Virus record (IMG/VR): IMGVR_UViG_3300036851_000272
Location: 4,422-68,421 of that record
From: a virus
DNA length: 64,000 bases
Strand: one strand, 5' to 3'
The translations under genes and the position numbers were made by a program. Of this stretch, positions 7,186 through 61,923 are shown piece by piece (positions within the stretch are counted from its first letter, which is position 1; the number at the start of each line of letters is the position of its first letter). The notes beneath the pieces were generated by a model that was given only the letters and a program-made list of their open reading frames with translations, was not told where the DNA came from and ran no database searches.

Positions 7186-7587
7186 TCACTTCGCGGTTTT
7201 GGCGGCAACACCTGGCGCTTCCTTCTGTGGGCAAATACCGATCTTCGCGTCAAGCGTCACCTCGCATCCTTCGAGCCCGAGCGGCTTCAGTACCCGGCTG
7301 ATCGCGGCCTGATACTCCTGCTCGGCCTTCTGCCGGTCTTGCGCCGCCTGGTTGATGTGCTGCTGAGCCTGCGCCTGAGTCGTCAGCTTCTTGTCCGACT
7401 CGATGAGCCTGGCTTGCAGCACCTTGGCGTTCGCAACGGCGATAGCGGCTTCATCCACGGGGCAAAGCTTCTTGGCTGTCGAAATGCACGGCAACTTCTC
7501 AAGTTCTGCCACCCTCTTGTTTTCTTCCGCGCTCAGCACGGTTCCGAGAATGATTGCGCCGATGAGCGCGAGTTTGTCGATTTTCAT
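7186..7587 (-). CDS. Signal/anchor-bearing coiled-coil protein (spanin-like or fibre chaperone)
   Basis: MKIDKLALIGAIILGTVLSA then coiled coil with 4 Cys; AAAGGA RBS. Confidence 0.55.
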   Translation of the reverse strand: MKIDKLALIGAIILGTVLSAEENKRVAELEKLPCISTAKKLCPVDEAAIAVANAKVLQARLIESDKKLTTQAQAQQHINQAAQDRQKAEQEYQAAISRVLKPLGLEGCEVTLDAKIGICPQKEAPGVAAKTAK

Positions 7588-7595
7588 AAGTCCTT

Positions 7596-10500
7596 TCAGT
7601 CGCATGCCCATGCTCCATTGAGCCGCTTGGCGATAGCGCCGGTGCTCGATGCCGCACAGGTTGAACTGCCATGCGTACAGTCGCTGCAGAACCAGATGCT
7701 GCCGTTTGGTGTGAATCCTCCGCTGGCGAGCGTGTCCAAGTCGGACTTCGTTCGGCCTCGCTGGAATTCCAGCCCGCCGTAGGCGTTCATTTTGAACACA
7801 TCTGTGGGAAATGCCGCGTTTTCCGCAGTGGCGAAACGCAGGCTCGATGTTGCGTTCGGACTCGATACAGCATCCGCGTAGCCGTCAATGCGAACAGCGA
7901 ACAGATCGACAGCGTTCACTCGACCAGCCATGGTGAACGTTCCAAGCCGCATGCCAGCCGTCACGTCGCTGGGGGATGCGATAGTCCCACCAGCCCGGTA
8001 GATGTGCAAGCCCGCGCGATCCGTAGTGGCAGCGTTTCCGTATTCGCGCAAAAACACATTGAACCCGCCAGTCTCCTGGCTCTGCCACGTGGTCGTTCCA
8101 GTGTCAGCAATTGACAGAACATCCCACCCCTTCAGAAACGAATAGAGCCGCTCGGATCCACCATCCGCATACCATTCCCAGGCTTTCGAGGCTCCAGTGG
8201 TTCTGTCGTCGTTGAGGAAGCCGGCAAGCGACCCCTTGGATTCTACTGCCGTTCCGATCTTTGCTCGCAGTACGCCGCCTGTAGCGAAGCCGATATCGTC
8301 GGCTCCAACCCGGTACATGCCGGTGTTCACATCGGCAGAGAAGGAATAGGCCGGGGAGGTGACCGCACCATCCCGCGCCTGCATGTACGTATTGAAGAAC
8401 CGGCCACGGTCGGTAAACCCACGGACATTGAGATTAGTGAACGGCAGGTTAGCAACCATGTCGTCGAGGCTACCTTCGAGTTCGGTCTCGCCAAAATTCG
8501 GGAGCCACAGGTTTCGGCCTTCGCTCTGGTTCTCGACCAGCGCGGAGTTGCTGAAACACATGTCACAGCGATTTGCGGCCGGCATATTGACGTAGTTGAT
8601 AGGCTGAACCCGCCGCCAATCCTTACCACCAGATGTTCCACCGGGTCCGCCGAACTGCCCATGGCGAATCACGTTATTGTCGGAATAGCCCTCTTCGACT
8701 GCATAACTGCCGATTCCCATTCCGAACATGATTTTAAGATCGTCAATCTTGTTTGAGCACGTATCGGCTCCACCTTCCGGGTAAACCGCAGCAATGTCGT
8801 ATCCTGACCAACGCATGCCGCTTGCCCGCTGGTGTGCCGGAGTGCCAATTACAATGTGCTGGATTAGGCTGTTGCAATTGAAGTAGTTCACCGAGGCGTT
8901 GGTTGTGTTCGACGTACGCATGTCAATGGCGAGAACGAAGCCGTTCACGCCAACGTTTCGCATACCGCCCGAAGTAACGTGCCGCCACTCGATCCCAACA
9001 CCGGAGCCCGTTGTGCCGGTGGTAACCAGCGTGCCGGTGATTCCGCCCGAGTTCGCGACCGCTCCATCTACCTGGATGTTTTCGAGGTGGACGTTCGTGA
9101 TCGGGCCAGCAACCCGAATAACAGGCTTACTTTTGTAGAGCTTAGGGGTGCAACCGGTGGAAAAAAACGTTCCGTTACCGACAGAGCCACGCAATTCGAC
9201 GTTGTTCGCGTCAATTTTGCGTACCGTCCACGTGCCGTTCGCCGCGTTGTCATTCGAGCAGGAGCCATTTCGGCCAGCCTGGTCAATGGTTGCGAGATCC
9301 TGCGTCTCCAGCCCGTGGCTCGTGGCCGTAACAACAATCGGCGTAGCGTTCGTGATGCCGGTGATGGTGACTTCGCTGAGCCCAGTGGTGCTGATGGACT
9401 TGAACCGCGTAGCGCCCGTATAAGCCGCGCTTCCGCCGCTCGCATTAGTCAGTTCCCCTTTGCCGCATCCCCGTAAGGTGATCCCGTGCCGAGTCGATGC
9501 GGTTCCACCCACTGTCCCATTCCCCAACTCCAGCGCGTCAGAGAGGGCGATATCTCCACATGGAGCCTGCATCACGCCACCAGTTGTTGGCAACGCGTCC
9601 CGGCAGGCCTGCATGGCAGCGAGATCATCAGTCGTTCCATCAGCCACGACGCCATAGCCGGAGCAGTGAAAGACTGTGCCGCCCTTGTCGTATGCCTTAA
9701 AGCCCTTCAGGGAGTCGGTGCCGATCAGGGCAGTGGCCGTGGGTGTTGTCGTTTGGACGGGATACCCGCCATCGATCTGAGTGCCTGCCGTGTTATTCCA
9801 TCTAGGGACGAATCCAATTGTCGATGAGCCAGGGCCGGAAACAAACCCGCTACTGGCGACCGCGCATGTGAGCGTGCCGTTCGCCGCCACATCGGTGACG
9901 AATTGCCCGCCTGGGCACGCCGCGGGGTCACTGGCGAGCGCTGTGGCGGTTGCCGCTCGGCCAGTAAAGTTTCCGCTGTTGTCGAAGCTTGTTAGGTCGC
10001 CGCCTACTTGAGTCTGAAACTTCACTATATCGGTCGCACCTGCTGCACCCCTGCGAAAAAATGCAGTAACTACGTCGGTGGCTGGACCTATCACGAGAGT
10101 TTGAAATGATCCAGTGAATCCCGCAATGGACCCATCTGAGGTTCTTTGAACGATCGTGTTGTTTGTTGCCGCTGTGTCGTAGTCAACTCCGACGTTATCG
10201 ACCGATCCTCCCGTGCTATTCCAGATGACTACATTCCCGCTTGTCGTGGCCCCAGTAACATTAACGTTTCCACCGCCAGCCGGGGCTGAGCACGTCAGAT
10301 TACCGTTGGCCGCGATCGCGTTGGCGAACTCTCCGCCAGGGCAATCCGTGGGGTTCGCCGCCAGTGCTGTGGCCGTCGCGGCGTTCCCGTCCGTGAATAG
10401 AAACGTTTTGTTCGCGCCGTTCACTCCACCTTCCCAAGTATTCGCCGTGGAGTCGTACATGATGGAGCCGCTCGCCGTGGGAGCCGCGCCAGCGGCTGCC

Positions 10501-13865: not shown

Positions 13866-14513
13866 TTACCGGACGTAACTCCGCCGCCCTCCCGTGGACT
13901 TATTCGGACTCTCGGCGATCCGGGCGATGTACTCGCCATATTCCTGCGCCGCCGACATGTAGCGGTCATCCTGGATGCCGAACCGCGTCATATAGATCTG
14001 TTTCCTGAGGCCCAACACGAGCCCCCACTGAAAGTCAGCGGGGATGTAGGGGTTTAGCTGCACGCTGGACGTATCGTCAGGGAACGGAATCATCCGGTCG
14101 TAGACTAGCGCCACGGTATAAGCTGTATCTGCGGGACAGTTGAAGAAAACACGCCGGAAAAGACTGCCGTCGAACTCCAGCATATAGCCGGTTGGCTTCC
14201 CCGCCGTGGTATTCGCCTTTGCGGCCATGATCCACGACTCGTCATCGCCAAAATAGGGCAACCCGGTATCGTAATCCGGCGCCAGCGCCACCTTCTTCAT
14301 GTGGCGGAAATCGTCATTGTCGATATCGACAAATTGAGCCGCGGCCGCAAGGGGCCGGGCAACATGCCTGCGCGTCCATGCGGGATAGCCCGCGTCGTGG
14401 AAGAATTCGTAGACTACCTTGTGCCGTAGAACAAACTTCAGGTTGGCTCCTGAAAGCTCAGCTGTGGAGATGCCGTCCAGGTCGGCAAAATTTTCAATCT
14501 CTGCCGTTGTCAT
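13866..14513 (-). CDS. Head-tail adaptor / tubular protein A-like
   Basis: 215 aa; GKPT.Y...P.DTAYTV.L.Y...IPADFQW.LV.G pattern; synteny. Confidence 0.7.
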   Translation of the reverse strand: MTTAEIENFADLDGISTAELSGANLKFVLRHKVVYEFFHDAGYPAWTRRHVARPLAAAAQFVDIDNDDFRHMKKVALAPDYDTGLPYFGDDESWIMAAKANTTAGKPTGYMLEFDGSLFRRVFFNCPADTAYTVALVYDRMIPFPDDTSSVQLNPYIPADFQWGLVLGLRKQIYMTRFGIQDDRYMSAAQEYGEYIARIAESPNKSTGGRRSYVR

Positions 14514-15337
14514 GCGAGTTTCTTGAATGTCTCGGCAATGTTCACCGAGCGAAGTTTTTGCGTGGTTTTGGGAATGTAGTCCTTGATCCCGAACGGATAA
14601 TCTCCCATGTGACCCACCGCAATCTCAGGATCTACAAGCACTTTTATGCCAAGCTGGATCAGCCGCGTCGAGAATCCGATATCCTCGCCAAGTTGCCACT
14701 GTGCATCATCCACGGGATAATCGAAAATTCTGACAAAGGCATGTTCAGCATACAGGTGCCGCCGCTTTGCTTCGATGCGAGCGGCCTCTACCTCTATTTG
14801 AAATGGATTGACTTTCATGCGTCGAAAGGTGCGCTCGTTGTCCATCACCCAATCTTGAGCACTCAGGTAATGCTCGATCAGGCGCTCCACGGTGTCTTTG
14901 CGCAACGCCAGAAACGCGGCCCCAACGCCAAACTGGCCGATTGTAGGAGACCGATCTGGGTCCGCCGCATGCATACCTCGAATCTGATCCATGTGTACGA
15001 ACTGATGAGCGTCCGGATCCCACGCTTTGAGAGCCAACTGAACGGGCTTGGAGCGTGTAGTACAGATACCGACCGCCACTGGCGCCTCATGCCGTAAAAT
15101 CTTCCAGATGGCGTCCGGCTCGGGCAACATATCGTCGTCGATCATAACGGCATAGTCCGCTACCGGGTTCATCTTGGCAAGCGCTTCATTGCGGGCGGCA
15201 TGTAGCAGTGATGAGCCGTATGGGACCATTACCGTTTGCATGCCTTTCCGGTTTGCTTCAGATATGGCGGTAGATATGGCGGTAAAGCAATACGGGTTTG
15301 CTCCCCGGTACGTGGCTATCTGGATTTCAGCCTTCAC
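14510..15337 (-). CDS. GT-A fold (family 2-like) glycosyltransferase
   Basis: HAARNEAL, YAVMIDDDM (DxD), GAAFLAL, GEDIGFS, VDP.I.VGH.G. Confidence 0.85.
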   Translation of the reverse strand: MKAEIQIATYRGANPYCFTAISTAISEANRKGMQTVMVPYGSSLLHAARNEALAKMNPVADYAVMIDDDMLPEPDAIWKILRHEAPVAVGICTTRSKPVQLALKAWDPDAHQFVHMDQIRGMHAADPDRSPTIGQFGVGAAFLALRKDTVERLIEHYLSAQDWVMDNERTFRRMKVNPFQIEVEAARIEAKRRHLYAEHAFVRIFDYPVDDAQWQLGEDIGFSTRLIQLGIKVLVDPEIAVGHMGDYPFGIKDYIPKTTQKLRSVNIAETFKKLA

Positions 15338-15804: not shown

Positions 15805-17088
15805 TTACGACTGGTAATCGGTGACGTTGTAGAGTTTCGCGTGGCGTCCACCACCGGCAAGCCCGGAAGCTGAAGATGGATTGGACCCGAATTTGATCTT
15901 GAAAGCGATCTCGGCGATGATCTGATCTACCTTTTTATCGTCGCCATTCTGCACCACGTCTTCCTGGAGCATGATGTTCCGGGAGCCGCCAGCGCCTTCG
16001 AGCCAGAGCATCTCGATCTCATCGAAGTCGAGTGAGAAGGCAACGCCAGCCATTCCCTGGCCAGCCGCCGAGGTGCCCGAGGTAGGTACGTAATCCTGGA
16101 GCATCCAGTCGGTGATCATCGCCCACGTGCCGTAGGGAGTCTCAACCTCCTGAATGTCCACACCGAACTTCTTCTCTCCGGGCCGGACCATGAGGAAGTT
16201 CGTTCCCCACATGTTGATCGCGGAGCGGATGCGTGGCGCGCAGACAAGCATGGCGCGCTTATTGCGGGCGTAGCGGAAAGACTGTTGGGCGAATCCGTCC
16301 AGGAAGATCTTGGGCGTCAGCACGCCGCCTGCGTTGGTAACGTTGCCGGATGCGCCGATGGCGTAATTGATGCCCATGGTCGAACGAATTGGCCGGCCAT
16401 TGTCTCCTCCAGTGAGATCCTGCGATGGTTGTCCCCAGTAGAGCGCGGCGTTGAGTTGCTCCTTGAACTCGACCATCTTTTGGCGCTGAAGGCGTTTCCG
16501 CTCGTTGCCGGCATCGCCGTATTGTTTTGAAGCGATATAGGTGTTGGTCAGATCGAGGACGGCCTTGAAGATTTGCGTGTAGGTTGTTTTGTTGACCTGC
16601 GATTGATACTTTGCTGTCGGCAATACGCCACCTTCCTCATTGGCCGAGCCGATGAGGCGAAGTGCGCCATTAGCGCCGATAGTGGCAACGGTAGACCCAC
16701 CAAAGGCGCGCTTGACTGCAATGACCGTAGCGCCGATTGAAGTGACTCGAATCATTTCCGGCAACGCATTGGAGTCAATGGCCTTGGGCACCATGAACAC
16801 GTCGCCTTTTGCAAAAACAGTTCCGTCAACGACCGTCAGAGTTGTGTTCGCCACATCGTTAGTGGAAGTTGTAGATCCGTTTTGTCCCCAGCGGGCGATG
16901 TAGTCCTGCTCCAGCCATTCAATAACGGGAGTCTCGGTCTTTTGCTTGTGCTTCATCTGAAGCAAAAGCGTCAAGAGTGGTTTTTCGTTGGGCTCCAACT
17001 CCATGATCTCGTCGGTAATGTTGCGTACTAGACGATTATCGGTGGTGATGGCAGCGATTGTGCTTCTAACGCCAGTGGTTTGCGCCAT
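15805..17088 (-). CDS. Major capsid protein (SU10/DUF5309-like, HK97 fold)
   Basis: PLLTLL...IEWLEQ, G.ANEEGG, YTQIFK, E..AL.WG, RSTMGI, G..I..VETPYG; AGGAGAGG RBS; follows scaffold. Confidence 0.9.
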   Translation of the reverse strand: MAQTTGVRSTIAAITTDNRLVRNITDEIMELEPNEKPLLTLLLQMKHKQKTETPVIEWLEQDYIARWGQNGSTTSTNDVANTTLTVVDGTVFAKGDVFMVPKAIDSNALPEMIRVTSIGATVIAVKRAFGGSTVATIGANGALRLIGSANEEGGVLPTAKYQSQVNKTTYTQIFKAVLDLTNTYIASKQYGDAGNERKRLQRQKMVEFKEQLNAALYWGQPSQDLTGGDNGRPIRSTMGINYAIGASGNVTNAGGVLTPKIFLDGFAQQSFRYARNKRAMLVCAPRIRSAINMWGTNFLMVRPGEKKFGVDIQEVETPYGTWAMITDWMLQDYVPTSGTSAAGQGMAGVAFSLDFDEIEMLWLEGAGGSRNIMLQEDVVQNGDDKKVDQIIAEIAFKIKFGSNPSSASGLAGGGRHAKLYNVTDYQS

Positions 17089-22300: not shown

Positions 22301-23287
22301 CTAGGCTGCACGTTGGTACTCCTCTGTGGCATGGCGTTCGTAGTAGACGAGGTTCGGACTAGTGGCGAGATAGCGGAGAAGGTCAAGCATGTGGCAGCGC
22401 GCCTCGACGCCTTCCTGTTTGAGTTCGCGCTCTTCGTTCATCCGCTTGGTGATTTTGTAGCGGTAGCTGAAAAATTCCAGGATCGTTTCAATACAGCGGT
22501 CGGAGATGTGCAGCCGCGTCCAGTTGCCCTTGAGATCGTGCTTGCGGGGGCGAAGCAGTTCCCTGACGGCGTCCTCACCCGCGCGGTGGCTTTTGTATGG
22601 GTCGCTGCATTCGATGCCATAGCGGTTGTAGCGCTCGGCGTAAGACTCCTCCACCTGGTTCTCGCCGGAGGCGCGGAACGCTTTGCCTGCCTGGTCCATG
22701 AACCGCTCCATGATTTTCTCGCCGTCCGGCTTGCGACGGTAGATCCCGTAGCCGTCTGAAGTTGTGTCGCCATGCCACTCGATCTGATTGCCTTCCATGT
22801 GGGCGATCATCTCGACGTACTGGCCGACAAAGAATTCATTTTCTTCATCCCGGTCGGTCAATTGCTTGCGCTTGCCGTAGATCTTCGATTCCCAATTCTC
22901 CCGGTAGATGTACAAATCATTCCACGCATCTACGCCTATCCACATAAAGGCATGTGGAGTGCGGGGGTGCGGATCGATTGCCATGTAGCGGCACATACGC
23001 TTGGGGATCCGGTCGTGGCCGATGACGTGAACTTTGGGATCGAACGTTGGATAGACGCGCTGGCCGCTGAGTGCGTCGTAGTCAATCTCCATCTCGCGGC
23101 GAAAGAGAGCTTGGTTCGTATAACGTTTGCGTTCCAGTTCCAGCCGCTCTTCCGTCATCGTGGGATCGGCGGTGTAGTGCAGCCACACGACAGCGGCGCC
23201 GGTTTCGGGCGCGCGGCGGAGCATAACGCCGGGGCACGGGGTGGCAACGTCAAAATTGACGGGATCAAGGTAGCTGACAAGGCTCAT
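22301..23287 (-). CDS. terL: Terminase large subunit, C-terminal nuclease half
   Basis: LHYTADP, FRREMEIDY, G.RVYP.F....H, YMAIDPH (RNase H Asp), LYIYRE, L.I.D.C..TI.EF..Y, H.LD.LRY. Confidence 0.88.
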   Translation of the reverse strand: MSLVSYLDPVNFDVATPCPGVMLRRAPETGAAVVWLHYTADPTMTEERLELERKRYTNQALFRREMEIDYDALSGQRVYPTFDPKVHVIGHDRIPKRMCRYMAIDPHPRTPHAFMWIGVDAWNDLYIYRENWESKIYGKRKQLTDRDEENEFFVGQYVEMIAHMEGNQIEWHGDTTSDGYGIYRRKPDGEKIMERFMDQAGKAFRASGENQVEESYAERYNRYGIECSDPYKSHRAGEDAVRELLRPRKHDLKGNWTRLHISDRCIETILEFFSYRYKITKRMNEERELKQEGVEARCHMLDLLRYLATSPNLVYYERHATEEYQRAA

Positions 23288-24484: not shown

Positions 24485-24670
24485 TCATGGTGTTATTGCG
24501 CGATCGCGCACAATCAAACATTCTTCGATGGAGGAGCGCTCATCCACGGGTATCGAGGCTGCCGACACTAAATCCTCACAGCCGGATTGATCTTCGGCGA
24601 CATATCGGCGTTCGAAACCAACAGCGCGCTTAACAGCCTTGCCGCTTGGACAGTACAGTGTTGGATTCAC
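24485..24670 (-). CDS. Small hypothetical protein
   Basis: GTGA overlap with terminase ATPase stop. Confidence 0.35.
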   Translation of the reverse strand: MNPTLYCPSGKAVKRAVGFERRYVAEDQSGCEDLVSAASIPVDERSSIEECLIVRDRAITP

Positions 24671-25407
24671 GCCGCTCTCTCCTTTGCCACAGGCCAATCA
24701 CACGGCAGCGCGCTTTCCGTCGCCGTACGAAACCAGCCGGGGTACGCCGAACTCAGCGCCACGAGGTGCAGCGGCTTGGCGGCCAGCATAGTGTTGAAAA
24801 TCTCCTCGCCGGCATCCATAAACGCCGCTTCGTCCATCACGAACGCCGTGGGGTGGAGCGACCGCGATTTATTCGGCTCGCCGGACAGGCCGACGCACCG
24901 GGACCCGTTCTCCATCTCGAAGTTGTCGTAAGCCTGCTCGAATGGAGGGACGCCGCGGCGGGTAGGCCAGCGGGCCTTCAACGCCGGGAGCGACTGATCG
25001 TACAGAGTTTTCACGTACTTGACATCGGTAAGCGCTTTATCCCGGTCCTGCGATTGAAAGACGAGCAATGTGGCGGGCCGGGTGAACATCATGTGAGCGA
25101 ATATTGCCGAGACCAGCCAGGAGGCCATCATGGTACGGGACTTCTCTATAAAGAGGATGGGCTCAGCCATGATCAGGTCCATGATCGGCTGGAAATAGGG
25201 ACGGTTCGGGAACGGCTTGTACGGGCTTACTCCCGGTGTTTTTTCCTGCTCGTCTACCGTTTTTGTGCAATTCATCAGCCAGAACAGCGGATCTTTGACC
25301 GCTCTCCGCGCATCCTTCTCCTCCAGCAACATCAATAACTCGGCGTCCTGCTGGGATTTGAAGGCCGCGTTGCTGGGCGTGCTCGATGATCTTGCGGTCG
25401 ATCTCAT
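24667..25407 (-). CDS. terL: Terminase large subunit, N-terminal ATPase half
   Basis: KPFP..PY, IEKSRTMMASW (Walker A variant), FVMDEAAF (Walker B), LSSAYPG coupling motif. Confidence 0.85.
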   Translation of the reverse strand: MRSTARSSSTPSNAAFKSQQDAELLMLLEEKDARRAVKDPLFWLMNCTKTVDEQEKTPGVSPYKPFPNRPYFQPIMDLIMAEPILFIEKSRTMMASWLVSAIFAHMMFTRPATLLVFQSQDRDKALTDVKYVKTLYDQSLPALKARWPTRRGVPPFEQAYDNFEMENGSRCVGLSGEPNKSRSLHPTAFVMDEAAFMDAGEEIFNTMLAAKPLHLVALSSAYPGWFRTATESALPCDWPVAKERAA

Positions 25408-25885
25408 CTTCGGAGAGTGTCGTGATTTGCACGCGGTGGTCGATATTCACTTCCACCTGGTCCGGCGCCGCCATGCCGTGCCATTCTGATGCCAGCTTTG
25501 CGAATTGCGCAATGGCCTTCCAGTCGTATTTTTTGTGAACGACCGGATTTCCGGCCTTGTCGAACAGATGGCCTTTTTTGCCCTTCAGGACTTCTTCGTC
25601 CTGTGCATCCAGCCCTTCGTTGACGCGCTGGATCACGCGAGCCATAGTCAGCCCAAGCATGTTGGCTTGCTTCTGAGCCTGCGTCTCGTACGCATCCCGT
25701 AGTGCTTGTTTGAAGTTGGTGGCTTCGGTTGCTACCCACTCGCAAACATGCTTGGGACTGAGTTCGTATTTCTTGCAAGTCTTGTTTACCCATCGATCCC
25801 ACGCCGCCCCCTGGCCTGGCCGGTCGTCGTAGTGATCTTGAAGAACAAGCGCTCGAACACGTTCCGTGGCGTCCTGAGACATCAC
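25163..25885 (-). CDS. terS: Terminase small subunit (putative)
   Basis: Helical, EGLDA...D.KA.....LA...GM.APD.V.V...LSEDEID; overlaps the start of the ATPase gene. Confidence 0.65.
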   Translation of the reverse strand: MMSQDATERVRALVLQDHYDDRPGQGAAWDRWVNKTCKKYELSPKHVCEWVATEATNFKQALRDAYETQAQKQANMLGLTMARVIQRVNEGLDAQDEEVLKGKKGHLFDKAGNPVVHKKYDWKAIAQFAKLASEWHGMAAPDQVEVNIDHRVQITTLSEDEIDRKIIEHAQQRGLQIPAGRRVIDVAGGEGCAESGQRSAVLADELHKNGRRAGKNTGSKPVQAVPEPSLFPADHGPDHG

Positions 25886-26178
25886 CCGAACCAGGGGTTA
25901 CCTTTGACATTTTCCTTGGGGCGATAGTTGGCTTCGAGTGTCCAGCAGCCCTTGTCGGAATCCAGCCCAACTATCTTTTCACCTTCAGGCCCGACATAGT
26001 ACCCACACCACTTGCACATCCATCGGCGCACCTTGCGCTTATCGTCGCCGTCCAGCCAGCCACCATGGGGCTTCCAAGTGCCGACGGCAGCACACTTGGG
26101 ACACCGCAGCCGGTCCCGCATACCGATCAACCGGATGAAGTCGAAGAAGCAATGCTTTAGTGTCAACGAGAACGTCAT
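25882..26178 (-). CDS. Zn-ribbon protein
   Basis: CPKC and CKWC pairs. Confidence 0.6.
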   Translation of the reverse strand: MTFSLTLKHCFFDFIRLIGMRDRLRCPKCAAVGTWKPHGGWLDGDDKRKVRRWMCKWCGYYVGPEGEKIVGLDSDKGCWTLEANYRPKENVKGNPWFG

Positions 26179-26181
26179 GCT

Positions 26182-26529
26182 TTATCCGAACATCCGCTCA
26201 TCGGAGGGACCGGCCGCCATGCGCTCGGGATTCATCGCCTTCGGCGCATCCTCGCGGTCGAAGTCATCACAGACGTCGGAAATCGTGACAGGGTAGCCGC
26301 CGTGGAGACCGCACTTGCGCGCGGCGTAGTGCTCGCAGGAGCCGCAACTCTCGGTGGAGCTTCGCGCAGAGCGCAGGTTTGGAGGCTTGTCGCCCTCAGG
26401 CGCTGCTGTCTTCTCTTCCGCCAGTTCGGCGTCTTCCATGCGTCGGCGCAGAGTCTTGTGATTGGGACCGGCGATGTAGCCGCCGTTCTTCTTGCTGCGC
26501 TCGTAGACGGTGGTGACTTGCTGTCTCAT
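26182..26529 (-). CDS. Small Cys-containing protein
   Basis: CGSCEHY..KC.......V....VCDDF; ATGA coupling. Confidence 0.55.
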   Translation of the reverse strand: MRQQVTTVYERSKKNGGYIAGPNHKTLRRRMEDAELAEEKTAAPEGDKPPNLRSARSSTESCGSCEHYAARKCGLHGGYPVTISDVCDDFDREDAPKAMNPERMAAGPSDERMFG

Positions 26530-26939
26530 TGTTCGACTCCGCCCAAAGCTTCGTTTCCGATGTAACGCAAGGCAGCTCCCACAGACAGGTGCGGCCAAGC
26601 GTTATCCCCAATGCGCCGCAGCTTGACGTAATCTCCGTAAGTTTCCACCGCACGGAGCAGATCGGGAGGCCGCATGTCCATGATGGGACGCGGGACTATA
26701 AACACGTCGCCTATTTTCATGAGCGATGGATCGCTGAGTGCGTAAGTGTCTCCCGACATAACGCTTTTTACTTCTGCCCAGCGAGAAATGTAATCCTCTT
26801 CGTGCCACTCAATCAGGGGCGATTTCTCGCTTCGCTTTGGACCTGCCGGCAAAATCTGCGCGGCAGAGAGAACCTTTGCCTTAACGGCAATTCCAGCTCC
26901 GCAAAGCGCGGCAAACCAAGATCGGCGCGATAATTTCAT
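26526..26939 (-). CDS. Tat-signal protein paralogous to major capsid residues ~54-155
   Basis: MKLSRRSWFAALCGAGIA signal; IEWHEEDYISRW/GDVFIVP/ALRYIG match capsid IEWLEQDYIARW/GDVFMVP/ALRLIG; AGGAGG RBS. Confidence 0.8.
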   Translation of the reverse strand: MKLSRRSWFAALCGAGIAVKAKVLSAAQILPAGPKRSEKSPLIEWHEEDYISRWAEVKSVMSGDTYALSDPSLMKIGDVFIVPRPIMDMRPPDLLRAVETYGDYVKLRRIGDNAWPHLSVGAALRYIGNEALGGVEQ

Positions 26940-27490
26940 GCAACCTCCTGTTTCACGGCACAGCGCCGAAGGACGGTGAGGCCGTTGTTATTTTCGTAGT
27001 GGTGCTCAAGCTCCCAGCCGTTGCCAATCAGCTCCTCGATGGGCTTCCAGATGCCCTCGCCGCCGTCGTCCCCCACCTTGCCATTGGTCACAGTGTCGTG
27101 GAAAATAACATGGCCGGTACAGCGGTGCAGATGCGCGGCAAGCTCGGCGCGGACGTGTTTCTCGTTGTGGAGCGTATCGACAAATAGAATGTCAAACCCC
27201 ATTGAGCCAGGCGCGGAATAACAAGAATCCTGCCTGGAAGCTATCCAGTGATCGCTTTCGATCTTTTTCAGTCCCTCGTTCAGATGGCTCCAATCGATGT
27301 CCACCGATATCAGCAGTGCAGGCTTAGCGGCCAGAAACGCTGAAGTGCTCTTTCCCTCGCGAACGCCAAGTTCCAAGATCCGGCAGTTTTTGTAAGACTC
27401 CGCGATCCGTCGCAACGTCGGCAGGTGCTCGTGGATATCGCAATAGCCAGGCGGATTGCAGAACTGCTCATAGATCTGCTCGATAGTCAT
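26936..27490 (-). CDS. Class I SAM methyltransferase (Methyltransf_24-like)
   Basis: DIHEHLPTL, ILELGVREGKST, SVDID, DILFVDT.H, VIFHDT, NNNGLTVL. Confidence 0.85.
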   Translation of the reverse strand: MTIEQIYEQFCNPPGYCDIHEHLPTLRRIAESYKNCRILELGVREGKSTSAFLAAKPALLISVDIDWSHLNEGLKKIESDHWIASRQDSCYSAPGSMGFDILFVDTLHNEKHVRAELAAHLHRCTGHVIFHDTVTNGKVGDDGGEGIWKPIEELIGNGWELEHHYENNNGLTVLRRCAVKQEVA

Positions 27491-27615
27491 GGATGCTACG
27501 GCTGTCAATTGGACCCCTCCGCGCCACCGAAGACTGTGGCCATGCAGATTGCCTTCAGAATCGCGAATCACCGGCATACCCGAAGCCATAAGATGAACCG
27601 CTAAAGATTCTGAAA

Positions 27616-27948
27616 TCACTCCGACCCCTCTATCCCGCCAAGCGCGTAGCACACATGTCCCGATGGCAGCATTTGCTCCTTGCACTGCCCGTAGTCCTGC
27701 GGCAGCAGTGGCACCGAGTGCGCCGAGAGCCCCCGCAGGTACGCGCGCCGGATGCGTTTCGCCCGCCGCGTCTCCACCAAATCGAAGTGTTGCGCATTCG
27801 CGCGCACCACCTCGTGATCGGCGAATCCGTAAAGCTTTGGCTCAGAGTTTGAGTCGGCCGTTTTAGGCCAGTAGATGGGAACTTGTTGATTTTCCAAGGA
27901 GGGATGCGGGGATAAGGTAAGTCGCCCCGGCGACTGCGGGATGTTCAA
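27616..27948 (-). CDS. Hypothetical protein, first gene of late transcript
   Basis: 110 aa just downstream of leftward promoter. Confidence 0.5.
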   Translation of the reverse strand: MNIPQSPGRLTLSPHPSLENQQVPIYWPKTADSNSEPKLYGFADHEVVRANAQHFDLVETRRAKRIRRAYLRGLSAHSVPLLPQDYGQCKEQMLPSGHVCYALGGIEGSE

Positions 27949-27952
27949 CTCT

Positions 27953-28029
27953 GTTGTACTTCAAGGGAAGGAAGTAAGTCAACAGCAAAATTTTGCTGAA
28001 CACTGTTCACAAACTAAACATGATAAGCT
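27953..28029. promoter_or_regulatory. Divergent promoters with palindromic operators
   Basis: Minus: TTGACT-N18-TACAAC (27982-27953); plus: TGATAAGCT (28021-28029); palindromes CAGCAAAATTTTGCTG (27983-27998) and TGAACAcTGTTCA (27997-28009). Confidence 0.55.
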
Positions 28030-28035
28030 GTACTT

Positions 28036-28218
28036 ATGGTGGAAGCACTTCAGGAACGTTTCAATAAAGACGTCGCCGCGAAGCTCGACGCGCGGCGTCT
28101 CACCCGCCAGCTGCCCTGCCGGTCGCTCCAGTGCCCCGTGTGCGGCTGCTATTACGTGCCGGATGCGGATTCAGCTTCGGGTATCTGCGGTTTCTGCGCG
28201 GTTTCGCTGGTGGCTTGA
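28036..28218 (+). CDS. Small Zn-finger protein, probably leaderless
   Basis: CPVC and CGFC; ATG 6 nt after extended -10. Confidence 0.45.
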   Translation: MVEALQERFNKDVAAKLDARRLTRQLPCRSLQCPVCGCYYVPDADSASGICGFCAVSLVA

Positions 28219-28433
28219 TCTTCGGCTGCTGCCAGAGCTTCTAAAATCTTCATGTCGGCTTCGCTGTAGATCTCGACGTAGAACCCGTGGCGTAAATAGC
28301 GGCGAAAAATTGGTTGAATCATTCCGCATCCTGTGAACCTCTTCCAGAACATCCATGCATACGCGGCGAGCCCAGGCACTAATGCCAAGACCGGCGTCCA
28401 CTAGGGAACTTGCAATTCAAAGAAACTCCGCAT
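28152..28433 (-). pseudogene. Small membrane protein gene with in-frame TAG at codon 11
   Basis: TGATG-coupled start, MRSFFELQVP*WTPVLALVPGLAAYAWMFW... Confidence 0.45.
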
Positions 28434-28727
28434 CACTTAAACCTCTCTTTATGCTCCCTAATTGTTCGACACGTCGCATCCAGCGCCCGCACTTCCTCCG
28501 GGCTCATCAGCTTCAGCCGCGGGAAATGCGAATACGGCATCTCTGCCGGGATCGGCACGCAGAGCACTTGCCCGCCAGGATTCACTCCATGGCGATGCGC
28601 CTCAACCACGGCTTCCTCAAGACTCCCTCAAGACTCCCTCAAGACTCCCAACGTTCGGAACGATGCAAACGCCGCGGCATTTATCCGTTGTCTCATCAGC
28701 GAAAGAAAGCCACCAGTCTTGCTTCAC
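28433..28727 (-). pseudogene. Gene disrupted by expansion of an 11-bp tandem repeat
   Basis: Removing two CCTCAAGACTC units restores MKQDWWLSFAD...VGSLEEAVVEAHRHGVNPGGQV...KERFK, coupled at both ends. Confidence 0.7.
28615..28649. repeat. Tandem repeat (CCTCAAGACTC)x3
   Basis: Read directly. Confidence 0.95.
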
Positions 28728-58262: not shown

Positions 58263-58802
58263 TTATGGTGGATCGTGCGTCCAATAGGCCAGAAACACAA
58301 TATCCTCAGCGCCGAATGGCCGGTACGTGGGAACCGTCATAACAATCTCTTTTGGCGTGGCCGTGTTAGGCGTCACGATATCTACGGTACCGCCTCCAAC
58401 TTGACCGGACTTGAAGAACGCCAACACCAATGTGTTCGGAGCAGGCGTGTACTTCAAAATGAGCAGTTGAGTCGAAGTGAAGGCAGGAAGTGCCGGATTG
58501 AGATTAGCCGATTCTTTCACCATTCGTGGAAGGCTAGCTGGAGTTGCAGCAGGTGGCGGGGGAGTCGCCGCTTCGATTGTGTCGGTGGCGAGATTGATCA
58601 CTAGGCCCTTGCCGATGTTGAGGCACCGCACCACGTAGAAGTTAGCCGCCCCAATTGTCACAGGGACTTTGACTGGAACGCGAGCGACGCCGTTGAACGG
58701 ACACCCTTTCTCCAGCAGATCGATCGTTCCCTGTGTCTGCGCATGCGCGGCGACGGCGAGGCAAAAAGCGAAGGCCACCCGCGCGAACGCAGGGTGGTCC
58801 AT
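58263..58802 (-). CDS. Signal-peptide-bearing hypothetical protein
   Basis: MDHPAFARVAFAFCLAVAAHA-QTQG (AxA cleavage site). Confidence 0.7.
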   Translation of the reverse strand: MDHPAFARVAFAFCLAVAAHAQTQGTIDLLEKGCPFNGVARVPVKVPVTIGAANFYVVRCLNIGKGLVINLATDTIEAATPPPPAATPASLPRMVKESANLNPALPAFTSTQLLILKYTPAPNTLVLAFFKSGQVGGGTVDIVTPNTATPKEIVMTVPTYRPFGAEDIVFLAYWTHDPP

Positions 58803-58828
58803 AGGTCGTGGTGTTTCTCTTTTATGCC

Positions 58829-59050
58829 TCATCTGCAATTATAGCCTCTCATCTCTATCTCAGCACGAAGCCGGTCAATCTCTTCAGATAGTTGCCGAGT
58901 CGTCAAATTCATATCGTTCGATGAGATACCCCAAACGTTCAGCACTTCCCGGCGCAGACTGGTAACCTCATCTCGCAGGCGTACGCGATTGGCTTTCATC
59001 CAAGTGGTGACTGCGATTGAAAGTGCTGTTTTGGTATTCATACCATTCAT
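58829..59050 (-). CDS. Small coiled-coil protein
   Basis: Operon packing. Confidence 0.45.
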   Translation of the reverse strand: MNGMNTKTALSIAVTTWMKANRVRLRDEVTSLRREVLNVWGISSNDMNLTTRQLSEEIDRLRAEIEMRGYNCR

Positions 59051-59074
59051 GGCGCCAGAAAAGCCTGCGTGGGC

Positions 59075-59326
59075 TCAAGCCCGCGAAGCCATTTCGAATC
59101 GGCTGGAGATATTGGACTTGTTGAATTTTCTGTAGTTGATGAACATACAGTCCCCCAATTCCAAGAACAGCAGCCGAACGCGGCCCCAGTAGGAGTAAGT
59201 TTTATACTGGCCGGTATAGTATCGCCGATCTTTCCCCAAGACTTGCGCCTGCTTCCATTTACCAGGGTAGTGCCGGATTGCAAGGCCGGAAACCGCTTTC
59301 GTTTCAGTGGTGCTCATACTCTTCAT
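59075..59326 (-). CDS. Small basic hypothetical protein
   Basis: ATGA-coupled to tailspike stop. Confidence 0.4.
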   Translation of the reverse strand: MKSMSTTETKAVSGLAIRHYPGKWKQAQVLGKDRRYYTGQYKTYSYWGRVRLLFLELGDCMFINYRKFNKSNISSRFEMASRA

Positions 59327-61920
59327 GGTGTCAGATACGCCTGCGTAACGCCACCTGTTTCTCGATACCACGTCGGAGCGGCCCCGGCCACCAGCGGCAC
59401 TACATGCGTTGTCGAGCTTGAGTAAGCCGTGGGCGAACTGAAAGTTGGAGAGGCGCTACGCTCCCCCGTACGCGCCGTCGAATAGCTGATGGGCACGCTA
59501 CGGTCGCTGCCCGCCGCTTGTGTCGAGAACTCGAACGGGCGGATCTGTGTGCCGCAGGCTACCTGGCCCCAGACTTTCGTGCTGGCCGTCAGTAGCGTGT
59601 TGGTGCCGAGTACGAAGATGCGCCGGGTGCCAGCGCTGTAGCTCCCCGAACGGGCATCCGTCTGCTCCCCGGCGTCCGAGGTATCGGCATGCAGCGTAGT
59701 GCGAGCGAAATTGGTCCACAGCTTCACATCGCAAGCTGCCGTGCTCGGCGCGGTGTAGGTCAGTGTGGCGCGCGTCGAGGCTGGCTGGATACTGAGATCC
59801 TCCAACCACCGCGGAGTGCCCGCTACCGTACCGCTCGTATGGTACTCTTGCTCATCGATGAAAGCGCCGGGTGCCTTGCCATTCGGAGCGGTGAAGGCAC
59901 AGCCAGACACGCAGTCGGGGCTGTAGGGGCTACCAAGTTGCAGCCGGTTGTCAGTGCTGGAGACAAACGGTACCGGATTCACGTTGACTGTGTTGGTTCG
60001 GCAGGCCGCGTATCCGGGCGTGTCCGTTCCCTCTAGTAGGTTGGCGTTGATTGAGAAGGGGGCCACGCCGATGGTCATTATTTGCGCTAACCCAGCTGCG
60101 CCACAGGTCCCATCTGTGTCCGGAGTAGTGAAGCCGATGATGTTGTAAGTTCCCTCCGGCCCGATGTTTCCCTCCATCTTGAAGTTAGTAAGCGGGCCAT
60201 CGGCTACCGTCTCATTCATCCTCAACCATGAATGCACTGAGGCTGAAGCTCCTTTGCGCACAGTGTTGTAGAGAAATTGCGCGCCCTGCATGCCGCTGTC
60301 GATACCAAACGAGAAGCAATGCGCATTGTTGCCAGCGGCGTAGTATGTCATCTCTGGATGATTGCAAAGATTGGTGACTGTGTTGTTGACGAACAGCAGA
60401 TTGCGATTTTGCTGCGCTGCTCCCCCGCAAGTTCCAGTGTGCCAGGCCCGCCAGAGATTGTCCCCACGATTGTTCGTGAAGCCAGTGTTCTGGATGTTGG
60501 TCCAAGGATTGTTGCTGTTGCCGCAGATCCCAGCGTCTGCTTGCGATGCCAGACTTGCAGTACCGGGATTACCACTGTCTGCCCCCTCGAAGCCATTCTC
60601 GATCCAGTTTCCCTCAATTCGGCAATTCGAGCATTGCTTGAGTTCGATCGGGGCCTTAAGCTGATACTGGCTGCGAAAGGTCATAGAGGTATCCTGTGAC
60701 CCCCACGTTCCGCTGTAGCCGGAGCCGTTGCAGGGATAGCAGCCGCCTGCCGTACAGTTGCTGATGGATATGGTGGTATCGCGATACATCTGGCCGGGAA
60801 AGCATGCGCCTTGAGACAGCGCAGTCGGCGAGCCAGTTCCCACCCCCCGAGAGCTATTAGTCACTACTTGCATGTACCCGGATTTGAAGATGTGATTCCG
60901 CAGTACTAAAAGTTCGGAGACTTGCCGGTTTGGGATCGCGGAGCCAGTGCCGCCAGTGAGTATGCCATGCGTGGCGCAGTTGAGATAGTTGTTCTCGATT
61001 CTAATTCCCCACGAGTTCACCCCGCCATAGATACAATGCGTCTCGTCAGTGGTCATTTTTATGTGTCCAAACCAGCTATCCCGAACGCTGACGTTGTTGG
61101 CGTTGATCGCAATTCCGCGCTTCGGCCCGTTGAGGTTTTGCTGTCCTCTGAATAAGCTGTGCTCGATCTCGAAATGATGTGGCATGCCTTCGACTGAAGC
61201 CTCCAACCCAGTGCCGAGTTGGAGCATGTCGGTAACCAGTGCCACTGCTCCTGTATAGAAATCAATTCCCTTAAACTGGACATTGTGGCCAACCTTGCCA
61301 GGCGTGCAGTACTGCGTTCCGGTGCCGATGTCGATGATGTCAACCACTGCACCTTGGTAGGTGAGTTGAAAGGTCGCTCCAGTGACCCCGGTCATGATGT
61401 ATTGCCGGTTGGCGGTCACGCCTCCCATAATTACTGAGGTTGTCGGCCCGCCCATGCCGTCGCTATTGGCGATCCGGCACGCGATCGGGTCACCTTCGAC
61501 GATCCCAACAGAACTGGCAACAGTAATCGTGTTGGCTCCTGCGTTGATCGAGCTTACGGTAGTCTGCTCCCGGCCAGCGCGCATGATCGCGGTATTGGCA
61601 TCGGACGGCGTGAATTGCGCCATCAGTGGTGAGTGGGATTCATTCACCCGGTAGCCGGTAGCAGGAAGCTCAGGCCAGCGGGAAGAGCGAAACGTGATGT
61701 ACTTCGCTCCAGCCTTCCAGCTCAGCGTGCAAGCCATCGCGAACGACTCACCAGCCCGCACGGTGATCGTGTCCCCGCCAACTGTACCAGCGTCGTTGTG
61801 TGCTGTACATGGATCGGTGAAATTGCACCCGGAGGCGCAGACGGTGTGGTCGGCAGCTACCGCAACTGATCCGGCAAAGACCGCAAACACTGCCAGCCGT
61901 AGGTGGTTTGACAAAGTCAT
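59323..61920 (-). CDS. Right-handed beta-helix tailspike/depolymerase-like protein with signal peptide
   Basis: TVCASGCNF...GDTITV.AG, IENNYL, V.RNH..K, IELK......IEGN.IEN; N-terminal LAVFAVFAGSVAVA-AD. Confidence 0.8.
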   Translation of the reverse strand: MTLSNHLRLAVFAVFAGSVAVAADHTVCASGCNFTDPCTAHNDAGTVGGDTITVRAGESFAMACTLSWKAGAKYITFRSSRWPELPATGYRVNESHSPLMAQFTPSDANTAIMRAGREQTTVSSINAGANTITVASSVGIVEGDPIACRIANSDGMGGPTTSVIMGGVTANRQYIMTGVTGATFQLTYQGAVVDIIDIGTGTQYCTPGKVGHNVQFKGIDFYTGAVALVTDMLQLGTGLEASVEGMPHHFEIEHSLFRGQQNLNGPKRGIAINANNVSVRDSWFGHIKMTTDETHCIYGGVNSWGIRIENNYLNCATHGILTGGTGSAIPNRQVSELLVLRNHIFKSGYMQVVTNSSRGVGTGSPTALSQGACFPGQMYRDTTISISNCTAGGCYPCNGSGYSGTWGSQDTSMTFRSQYQLKAPIELKQCSNCRIEGNWIENGFEGADSGNPGTASLASQADAGICGNSNNPWTNIQNTGFTNNRGDNLWRAWHTGTCGGAAQQNRNLLFVNNTVTNLCNHPEMTYYAAGNNAHCFSFGIDSGMQGAQFLYNTVRKGASASVHSWLRMNETVADGPLTNFKMEGNIGPEGTYNIIGFTTPDTDGTCGAAGLAQIMTIGVAPFSINANLLEGTDTPGYAACRTNTVNVNPVPFVSSTDNRLQLGSPYSPDCVSGCAFTAPNGKAPGAFIDEQEYHTSGTVAGTPRWLEDLSIQPASTRATLTYTAPSTAACDVKLWTNFARTTLHADTSDAGEQTDARSGSYSAGTRRIFVLGTNTLLTASTKVWGQVACGTQIRPFEFSTQAAGSDRSVPISYSTARTGERSASPTFSSPTAYSSSTTHVVPLVAGAAPTWYRETGGVTQAYLTP

Positions 61921-61923
61921 ACG

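Follow-up and report, generated by a model that had tools for sequence, protein, structure and literature searches.

Why would a phage encode a separate copy of one piece of its major capsid protein (MCP) behind what resembles an export signal? Capsid proteins are viewed as strictly cytoplasmic building blocks, and a capsid knob with an export-type leader would amount to a structural domain recruited for work in, or en route to, the cell envelope. The question is raised by a soil phage whose 68,421-bp record contains the stretch analysed here (64,000 nucleotides; the window). On its minus strand, an open reading frame with an ATG start encodes a protein of 137 aa, referred to below as the small protein. 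The features of the locus and of the corresponding capsid gene are as follows.

26526..26939, minus strand: the whole gene, a Tat-like leader followed by a paralogue of the capsid N-arm end, E-loop and I-domain (BLASTP against own MCP E 5e-15; homologue P0002)
26944..26949, minus strand: ribosome-binding site AGGAGG, within the 3' end of the methyltransferase gene (read from the sequence)
26936..27685, minus strand: upstream neighbour, a SAM-dependent methyltransferase (PF13578 E 2.2e-6)
26182..26529, minus strand: downstream neighbour, a 115-aa Cys-motif protein with its ATG on the stop of the small gene (from the sequence)
15805..17088, minus strand: MCP of the SU10_MCP family, 427 aa, the parent-type gene (PF17236 E 2.9e-36; phrog_1328; VP1 MCP, 9in6, E 1e-16)
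16624..16947, minus strand: MCP residues 48-155, comprising the N-arm end, E-loop stems and inserted beta-barrel, the segment copied by the small protein (BLASTP range, alignment A3)

The reading frame has the surroundings of a working gene. AGGAGG stands 5 nt upstream of its ATG, the ATG overlaps the methyltransferase stop (ATGA), and a second ATGA joins its own stop to the start of the following gene. The late operon has this gene at its head, with the packaging and head genes immediately downstream. Together with translational coupling on both sides, this position leads us to expect co-production with the head proteins. Scanning 25000-28600 revealed no sigma-70-like promoter on its strand, and the sole minus-strand terminator-like site in that interval (28090-28074) is upstream of the operon. 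No RNA runs containing the sequence were listed; the only listed run with the DNA is a soil metagenome, perhaps the source sample itself. The Cys-motif neighbour heads the packaging module in some relatives, with tblastn matches in L003, L004, L012 and L021 and a similar ORF, judged by eye, in L005. The methyltransferase gave no tblastn match in the related loci L003-L023.

Comparison with the phage's own MCP gave one colinear BLASTP alignment of residues 35-135 with MCP 48-155 (36/109 identical, 33%; 57.4 bits, E 5e-15), establishing sequence homology to the I-domain segment. When the small protein was used as query against its own record, only itself and the MCP (E 2.0e-12) were matched. The first-pass annotation had proposed such a colinear, free-standing paralogue of a capsid segment, and the significance of this alignment bears it out. 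The strings it quoted were all found, MKLSRRSWFAALCGAGIAVKA, PLIEWHEEDYISRW, GDVFIVPRPI, PDLLR and AALRYIGNEALGGV in the 137-aa ORF and PVIEWLEQDYIARW, GDVFMVPKAI, PEMIR and GALRLIGSANEEGGV in the 427-aa ORF 15805-17088. The acidic and aromatic stem residues E44, E47, D49, Y50, R53 and W54 correspond to MCP E57, E60, D62, Y63, R66 and W67, and the MCP columns E57, E60, D62 and W67 are nearly invariant across the capsid family. A two-sequence profile of the small protein and its homologue P0002 matched the MCP in 10 of the 21 related records (E 5e-15 to 4e-11). It is virtually certain that this is a real gene and a real paralogue.

The kinship is nevertheless one of part to whole. Pfam returned no family for the small protein at E <= 0.1, and membership of SU10_MCP (PF17236), which denotes a complete HK97 fold, does not apply: the alignment covers MCP 48-155 only and the C-terminus falls before the MCP spine helix. 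The protein is a homologue of an MCP segment, not a member of the SU10_MCP family. That segment had been taken for the E-loop and its inserted domain. The matches to the VP1 and phicrAss001 I-domains described below agree with this, but homology also extends into the N-arm end, and the copied piece is therefore larger than the E-loop. The expectation that the small gene would track the capsid of its own phage failed. It scored up to 65.1 bits (E down to 4e-16) against other MCPs of the clade compared with 57.4 bits against its own, and the tree did not group it with its own MCP. In that tree the median branch is 0.27 changes per column, and those of the two small proteins are 2.26 and 4.25. 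Among cultured phages, Microcystis phage Mel-JY34 has the nearest MCP (32.5% identical across 55% of the MCP query), and no prophage with a related MCP was found in genome contigs with the MCP alignment as query.

Among 1.84 billion representative proteins, searched exhaustively, there was a sole true small homologue, P0002, encoded on a 14,241-bp contig; each of the two is a singleton cluster. They are 34-37% identical overall, nearly equal in length (137 versus 138 aa) and have a common leader and end point. Constraint is uneven along the protein, with identities of 14/22 in the leader, 9/14 and 9/10 in the stem strands, 13/65 in the barrel and 3/18 in the linker, that is, 64-90% in three segments and 17-20% elsewhere. 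Further searches brought no third member. In word-indexed searches, 1 of 41 candidates obtained with the small protein was the protein itself, and 2 of 571 obtained with the two-sequence alignment were the two known members. Scans with P0002 or alignment A1 gave no locus in viral, metagenome or genome contigs, tblastn against 50,697 GenBank phage records gave no match, and an exact-pattern leader motif at an ATG start occurred in no stretch of the viral contigs. Neither of the 100%-complete relatives, G002 and G003, has the gene, nor do the 8 other clade records with an MCP match, indicating that it is dispensable.

Two sets of candidate relatives were set aside. The long repeat proteins P0003, P0004, P0006 and P0007 matched at E 2.7e-8 to 7.8e-4, each in 5-7 stretches. 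The likeness of their repeats (..AWDGTNYLVVWQD..) is confined to the EWxExDYxxRW motif, and we provisionally count them as hits to the motif added up across repeats and not as relatives. The second was a 116-aa ORF at L004 831-1181, which carries the leader MRVERRWFFRLLAGLIPGLASAGQ and precedes the packaging module of a complete relative. It was rejected as a homologue at BLASTP E 1.3 and hhalign probability 0.15%; no paralogue was found in its own record, and its Atlas model was uninformative.

Behind the leader, the protein includes the following parts.

26778..26819, minus strand: outgoing E-loop stem strand, aa 41-54, PLIEWHEEDYISRW, matching the MCP motif EWxExDYxxRW (9/14 identical to P0002)
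26583..26777, minus strand: barrel body, aa 55-119, a predicted six-stranded beta-barrel equivalent to the I-domain (AF2 blocks at pLDDT 83-92; 13/65 identical to P0002)
26553..26582, minus strand: returning E-loop stem strand, aa 120-129, VGAALRYIGN, aligned to MCP ALRLIGSA (9/10 identical to P0002)

The protein ends 8 residues past the returning stem strand; in the MCP, the chain goes on from there into the spine helix. With alignment A3, AF2 modelled residues 52-132 as a six-stranded beta-barrel (mean pLDDT 73.7; residues 51-130 at 83-92); from the single sequence pLDDT was 37.3. As 38 of the 40 rows in alignment A3 are capsid proteins, the capsid-domain likeness of this model is partly built in. 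Read with that in mind, the modelled barrel is superposable on solved MCP E-loop insertions. Among 48,161 chains ranked by VIA, the first was VP1 MCP 64-154 (9in6_M; Z 10.1, rmsd 3.2, 84 aligned), the second phicrAss001 MCP 79-184 (7qof_A; Z 8.1, rmsd 2.0, 77 aligned) and the third an unrelated tail-tube protein (Z 8.0). Foldseek gave no PDB match at E <= 0.001, the top row being 9in6_M at 9.6e-3, and the BFVD structure search returned only generic barrels of fibre and tail proteins and two uncharacterised proteins (~8e-4). The first-listed structural neighbour of the Atlas model was an SU10_MCP cluster (TM 0.46, residues 50-134). That cluster is mostly from Planctomycetota, a lead only as to the host. 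Complex prediction between the MCP and the mature small protein scored 0.28 and 0.14 against a mark of 0.32, which is evidence neither way.

The second half of the question concerns the N-terminus.

26877..26939, minus strand: leader, aa 1-21, with n-region MKLS, R5-R6, 13 uncharged residues SWFAALCGAGIAV, V-K-A and then K (14 of the first 22 residues identical in P0002)

The consensus of twin-arginine (Tat) signals is S/T-R-R-x-F-L-K; their h-regions are weakly hydrophobic, and basic c-region residues serve as signals for avoiding Sec. At the level of motif, the leader MKLSRRSWFAALCGAGIAVKA-K fits this pattern. The small protein has S-R-R-S-W-F and P0002 S-R-R-S-L-F, with the arginine pair at positions 5-6 and 4-5, respectively. 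In both proteins the pair is followed by exactly 13 uncharged residues, with a mean Kyte-Doolittle value of 1.73 and 1.77, and these by K-A-K. V-K-A and T-K-A are candidate small-x-small cleavage sites, and h-region and c-region both conform to TATFIND-type rules. The mature parts lack Cys and have pI 5.7 and 5.4. The twin-arginine signal that had been annotated is thus borne out as an RR motif within a leader conserved in the only homologue, the routing being predicted from motif rules. A Tat-type rule was also run over 408,720 bases (the window, two loci from the same genome and 21 related loci; all frames, all starts). It returned 7 rows, two of them the small protein and two alternative starts of one L021 ORF. 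An RR within the first six residues and after a polar residue was found in 2 distinct ORFs there, the small protein and an unrelated L004 ORF. Two other kinds of signal were rejected: a lipoprotein signal, given that there is no lipobox and the sole Cys lies in A-A-L-C-G, with Thr at that site in P0002, and an SAR-type anchor, the h-region being only 13 residues. As a weak lead, two clusters stood among the Atlas feature neighbours of the small protein at scores under the 0.9 level, one of TAT_signal (0.77) and one of the small subunit of a periplasmic [Fe] hydrogenase (0.79).

The leader is short for a Tat signal (21 aa with an n-region of 4). Pfam and NCBIfam on the whole proteins, and Pfam on the 40-residue leaders (E <= 10), reported no family, so that no Tat-signal model (PF10518, TIGR01409) was matched; such models are short, and HMMER filters drop weak matches. 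Together with the A-x-A-like site V-K-A, this would suit an ordinary signal peptide or signal anchor used for Sec export or membrane tethering, the twin arginine being incidental. The phage does carry Sec-looking leaders on other ORFs (61924-63402, 59323-61920, 58263-58838, 56713-56886 and 7186-7611). However, S-R-R-S-(W/L)-F is common to two homologues that are otherwise far apart, and the K-A-K flank and weak hydrophobicity suit Tat more closely than Sec. With 13 uncharged residues the stretch is too short to anchor stably in a membrane, and a lipobox is missing in both proteins (A-L-C in one, no Cys in the other). We consider Sec export or tethering unlikely. The small protein is predicted to leave the cytoplasm, which we regard as probable; whether it would do so by Tat specifically is, from the leader sequence, an evenly balanced call.

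Alternatively, the N-terminus may not serve export at all, and the protein could act in the cytoplasm as a modulator of capsid assembly or a decoy, binding scaffold, portal, capsid subunits or a host sensor. It retains exactly the nearly invariant acidic/aromatic stem motif of the family, and its site in the late operon, just ahead of the genes for packaging and the head, would suit such a function. Yet a conserved RR, an uncharged 13-mer and K-A-K at the N-terminus are hard to explain in a soluble protein, and close relatives assemble heads without this gene. A purely cytoplasmic role therefore has a poor chance in our view. That the gene is a functionless, decaying remnant of a partial capsid-gene duplication, as its very long branches, drifted barrel residues, absence from relatives and mere two known members might suggest, is highly improbable given its intact frame, strong ribosome-binding site and coupling at both ends, a second member matching it in length, leader and end point at 34-37% identity, and conservation that is patterned instead of decaying uniformly.

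Our core proposal, a functional capsid-fragment paralogue predicted to leave the cytoplasm by the Tat route, is one we would as readily see upheld as overturned. The protein would reproduce, as a free-standing unit, the first third of an SU10-type MCP, with the N-arm end, both stem strands and the I-domain at the E-loop tip. Its probable origin is a partial 5' duplication of a capsid gene inside the phage clade, after which its N-terminus would have become a twin-arginine-type signal peptide. Folding in the cytoplasm would give a barrel of ~12.9 kDa, compact, acidic and without Cys, held by the E-loop hairpin. Folded proteins are the cargo of Tat export, and the host Tat system would recognise S-R-R-S-W-F and move the folded protein across the inner membrane, with cleavage after V-K-A.

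As to what the protein would do, selection has preserved the leader and the stem motif (EWxExDYxxRW ... ALRxIG) and let the barrel drift; we therefore read the protein as a mimic of the capsid surface that may be removed from the cytoplasm or act outside it. The first-pass annotation had named a decoy, superinfection exclusion and a membrane tether as possible roles. Mimicry of the capsid motif, with the protein as a decoy that draws off a binder of the capsid protein, is a role we put forward tentatively. Another envelope function, for example exclusion or masking, we hold to be a somewhat doubtful possibility. These leading candidate roles are guesses. The stem motif could be conserved for structural reasons alone, to close the barrel and not for mimicry, and the very long branches could mean relaxed constraint. 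Folded complexes can pass through the Tat pathway by 'hitchhiking', so a mimic, possibly with a bound partner, would leave the cytoplasm. It is a long shot that the small protein is one case of a widespread, undescribed strategy in which exported head-protein mimics, here one displaying the least mutable motif of the capsid family, capture a cytoplasmic capsid-recognising partner such as a capsid-sensing defence protein. In a bolder variant, the exported knob would be a periplasmic stand-in for the capsid surface, serving the phage's other signal-bearing proteins. If mimicry is true, some host sensor or phage assembly factor would be expected to read the capsid E-loop stem motif, and Tat export would gain a role in phage-host conflict.

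The literature searched, with a limited library and set of terms, described neither a capsid fragment with a Tat tag nor a phage exclusion protein that depends on Tat; the small protein would be the SU10-type, I-domain version of an export-tagged capsid piece. Its nearest structural counterparts are parts of whole capsid subunits. Residues 79-180 of the phicrAss001 MCP (PDB 7QOF) are the published E-loop I-domain, and that paper notes a likeness to the P22-type coat protein I-domain (PMC10172136). The I-domains of phicrAss001 and VP1 (PDB 9IN6) offer a matching beta-barrel at the equivalent site of the capsid chain (Z 8.1 and 10.1), and the small protein is linked to VP1 by sequence via its own MCP. 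In those phages, however, the domain sits in a full capsid subunit of ~400-470 aa, whereas here it stands alone, without P- and A-domains and with an export-type leader. The P22-type coat I-domain, represented by the CUS-3 capsid (PDB 8SKG, residues 225-336), is a similar small barrel (Z 5.9). With Tat signal peptides in general, the leader has in common S-R-R-x-hydrophobic-hydrophobic, a weakly hydrophobic h-region of 13 residues, a basic c-region and a small-x-small site, but it is shorter than typical and gave no Pfam or NCBIfam match. A capsid-derived second gene in one phage is also seen in T4, where gp24, a paralogue of gp23, is reportedly the vertex protein, incorporated in the shell as a whole HK97-fold subunit; the small protein differs in being a 116-residue fragment behind a signal peptide. 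Small, dispensable, envelope-directed phage proteins include T5 Llp, T4 Sp and Imm, and HK97 gp15, none of which is known to be capsid-derived. The protein described here is likewise small, dispensable and putatively envelope-directed, but it derives from a capsid protein, has no promoter of its own and is encoded in the late operon.

The small gene under study and the gene for the major capsid protein (MCP) of the same phage lie in the window as follows:

26526-26939, minus strand: target small gene, 137-aa ORF with an ATG start
15805-17088, minus strand: MCP, 427-aa ORF, SU10-type (PF17236, E 2.9e-36)

The parent virus record (68,421 bp) carries direct terminal repeats and has an IMG/VR completeness rating of 100%; DNA of the window is contained in a single sequencing run, from a soil metagenome that is possibly the source sample itself. 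All sequence strings quoted in the first-pass annotation were recovered, in the 137-aa ORF and, for the capsid strings, in 15805-17088. The MCP ORF also matches phrog_1328 ('major head protein') and the MCP of Vibrio phage VP1 (PDB 9IN6, E 1e-16). An AGGAGG ribosome-binding site lies 5 nt upstream of the target ATG, which forms an ATGA overlap with the stop codon of the methyltransferase gene upstream; the target stop shares a second ATGA overlap with the ATG of the next gene. These signals mark the small ORF as a genuine gene. Scanned with a simple consensus, 25000-28600 showed no sigma-70-like promoter on the target's strand, and the one minus-strand terminator-like site (28090-28074) is located upstream of the operon. 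Beyond the target, the long late operon on the minus strand goes on to encode terminase, portal, scaffold and capsid. Because no promoter of its own was found and the terminator-like site lies only upstream, the target looks like an embedded, co-translated member of this operon.

The target had been claimed to align colinearly with the phage's own capsid protein, and this alignment proved significant by BLASTP: residues 35-135 match MCP residues 48-155 in a single colinear alignment (36/109 identical, E 5e-15). Searched against its own phage genome, the small protein matched only itself and the MCP (E 2.0e-12), and it scored 28-65 bits against 38 clade MCPs. At the sequence level this similarity is beyond chance, and the small protein is a paralogue of the capsid segment comprising the end of the N-arm, the E-loop and the I-domain, a beta-barrel inserted in the E-loop. 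Some alignments to clade MCPs begin at residue 29-30 (MCP residue about 36-43). In A3, an alignment of the target and its homologue P0002 with the 38 clade MCPs, the target ends 8 residues past the returning E-loop strand, where the MCP enters the spine helix. Partial duplication of the 5' third of a capsid gene would be the simplest origin.

AlphaFold failed on the small protein as a single sequence (pLDDT 37.3). With A3 (2 small proteins and 38 MCPs) as input, mean pLDDT rose to 73.7, and residues 51-130, at 83-92, formed six strands. Compared with 48,161 representative solved chains, this model ranked VP1 MCP 64-154 first (Z 10.1, rmsd 3.2, 84 aligned) and phicrAss001 MCP 79-184 second (Z 8.1, rmsd 2.0, 77 aligned), a capsid likeness partly built in by the capsid-containing alignment. 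An unrelated tail-tube protein came third (Z 8.0), many generic small barrels followed at Z 6-7 (N-terminal domains of F1, V1 and T3SS ATPases; translation GTPase domain 2), and the CUS-3 (P22-like) I-domain reached Z 5.9. For the Atlas model of the small protein, made without A3, the first-listed structural neighbour was an SU10_MCP cluster (TM 0.46). The proposal that the fragment is the E-loop and its inserted surface domain is supported because the model best matches the VP1 and phicrAss001 MCP segments; its boundary has to be widened, as homology also extends into the end of the N-arm. As a separate observation from A3, the I-domain of the clade MCPs has a Ser/Thr/Asn-rich first loop that is missing from the small paralogue, and capsid glycosylation is a possibility.

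The target N-terminus reads M-K-L-S-R-R-S-W-F-A-A-L-C-G-A-G-I-A-V-K-A-K, with exactly 13 uncharged residues after R-R (mean Kyte-Doolittle 1.73) before K-A-K. Twin-arginine (Tat) signals are marked by S/T-R-R-x-F-L-K, by an h-region of weak hydrophobicity, by basic c-region residues ('Sec-avoidance') and by a small-x-small cleavage site. The leader fits these rules, with V-K-A as putative cleavage site, and no lipobox is present in it. The predicted mature part (116 aa, 12.9 kDa, pI 5.7) contains no cysteine, which would suit folding in the cytoplasm. Two points weigh against Tat: the leader is short, and neither small protein, whole or as leader alone, matched a Tat-signal model, since Pfam and NCBIfam gave no family at all for them. 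Such models are short, however, and weak matches can be lost in HMMER's filters. We also applied a crude, self-made rule (RR in the first 18 residues, then x-hydrophobic-hydrophobic with a basic residue optional, then at least 13 uncharged residues of mean Kyte-Doolittle at least 1.2) to every start in six frames of 408,720 bases, covering the window, two own-genome loci and 21 related loci. It returned seven rows: the target twice, one ORF of locus L021 twice (alternative starts), and ORFs of loci L004, L013 and L016. Among these distinct ORFs, only the target and the L004 ORF have RR within the first six residues after a polar residue. Feature neighbours of the small protein in the Atlas included two Tat-related clusters (scores 0.79 and 0.77), which are leads only. 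At the stringency used, exact-pattern scans found the target leader on no other cargo in IMG/VR.

Sec-like hydrophobic leaders were seen on window ORFs 61924-63402, 59323-61920, 58263-58838, 56713-56886 and 7186-7611, all on the minus strand. Those scanned with Pfam (E <= 0.01) gave no family, and tblastn of the three within 58263-63402 found no match in the related loci.

When 1.84 billion representative proteins were searched exhaustively with phmmer, seven matched at E <= 0.001: the target itself, its own MCP (2e-5), P0002 (138 aa, E 4.3e-10) and four long repeat proteins. The latter (P0003, P0004, P0006 and P0007; 787-1725 aa, bacterial-looking) are built of roughly 55-residue repeats (..PAVAWDGTNYLVVWQDxRSG..DIYGARVS..) and hit the small protein at its E-loop stem motif (E 2.7e-8 to 7.8e-4), probably a motif-level coincidence with the score summed over repeats. 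We take P0002 to be the one true small homologue and the family to be tiny; the two proteins are each a singleton cluster. P0002, from an assembled contig of 14,241 bp, begins M-I-S-R-R-S-L-F-A-A-L-T-G-L-V-A-A-T-K-A-K-A, continues into a capsid-like part, and shares the architecture and end point of the target.

Identity between the target and P0002 by segment
Leader, residues 1-22: 14/22
Linker: 3/18
Outgoing stem strand (PxxEWxExDYxSRW): 9/14
Barrel body: 13/65
Returning stem strand (VGxALRYIGN): 9/10

The conserved stem residues align to the nearly invariant MCP-family columns E57, E60, D62 and W67, and several MCP-invariant barrel residues, such as E111, are missing from P0002 in A3. This pattern, with the stem kept and barrel residues lost, points to selection on the leader and the most conserved motif of the capsid family, not on the barrel surface.

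Forty MCP homologues were found at E <= 1e-5 among 8,000 scored candidates (closest 51% identity), and 21 MCP-related loci in IMG/VR. A profile of the two small proteins matched 10 of these 21 records (E 5e-15 to 4e-11), exactly once each, the matched frame of 404-408 aa being the MCP itself; no match came from the other 11, which have fragments or more distant MCPs. In the 100%-complete relatives G002 and G003 this profile matched the MCP alone, with no separate small gene. The expectation that such fragments track their own capsid is not supported here: the target scores 57.4 bits against its own MCP and up to 65.1 bits against other clade MCPs, and in a maximum-likelihood tree of the shared segment neither small protein joins the MCP of its own phage. 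Their branches measure 2.26 and 4.25 changes per column (median 0.27), and they group together in 39% of bootstrap trees, which leaves their placement uncertain. Because the target is no closer to its own MCP than to others and neither small protein joins its own, the duplication would be old, or the gene would have moved between phages.

Relatives conserve a module of Cys-motif protein, small-terminase-like protein, terminase halves, portal, scaffold and MCP. The methyltransferase, the target, the upstream 110-aa ORF and a 98-aa zinc-ribbon ORF have no counterparts in the related loci, which carry unrelated small ORFs at the target's position. Gene order thus places the target where the late operon begins, in an accessory slot whose content varies. 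In G002 the slot, upstream of the packaging module, holds a 116-aa ORF (L004 831-1181, plus strand; G002:52615-52962) whose leader (MRVERRWFFRLLAGLIPGLASAGQ), with RRxFFR, is more canonical as a twin-arginine motif than that of the target; this ORF has no homology to the target or the capsid protein.

Directly downstream of the target, the 115-aa Cys-motif protein (26182-26529, minus strand) has CGxC...C...VCDxF-like motifs and directly precedes the small-terminase-like gene, a position conserved in L003, L004, L005, L012 and L021. The large terminase is encoded by two minus-strand ORFs, 24667-25407 (PHROG terminase match) and 22301-23287 (further PHROG terminase matches), with a glycosyltransferase-like ORF and a 143-aa ORF between them. 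The gap between the halves is about 10-60 nt in L008, L009, L012 and L013 and about 600-3,800 nt in L003-L007, L010 and L021, suggesting a site of variable insertion within or between the halves. ORF 14510-15337 (minus strand), flanked by the capsid region and by the SU10-type adaptor (13866-14513), has counterparts in 10 related loci (34-43% identity) and no Pfam family.

I-domains are autonomous folding units, as in P22. The small protein would fold fast into a barrel in the cytoplasm, and at such a folding speed its passage across the membrane would call for Tat, not Sec; after removal of the leader behind V-K-A, the product would reach the periplasm. We tentatively favour mimicry, in which the fragment would present the capsid motif to whatever normally reads it on the capsid protein, because selection acts on the motif that varies least in the capsid family. 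An envelope role unrelated to mimicry, such as exclusion or the masking of receptors or debris, is conceivable at a low probability. A cytoplasmic assembly modulator is unlikely. That the gene is a decaying remnant is very improbable; the RR leader and the stem motif are conserved between the target and P0002. Predicting a complex between the MCP and the mature fragment returned no verdict either way.

In the literature searched, no paper reported a capsid fragment carried behind a Tat leader, and none dealt with Tat-dependent phage exclusion proteins. What sets the gene apart is that a capsid domain paralogue stands on its own behind a putative export leader. In the portion of the published account considered here, SU10's own MCP is listed with standard HK97 domains only (PMC9509320). 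The closest structures to the small protein are the E-loop I-domains of the phicrAss001 and VP1 MCPs. The closest concept is the capsid paralogue gp24 of phage T4, yet gp24 is a complete subunit, whereas the small protein is a free-standing domain.
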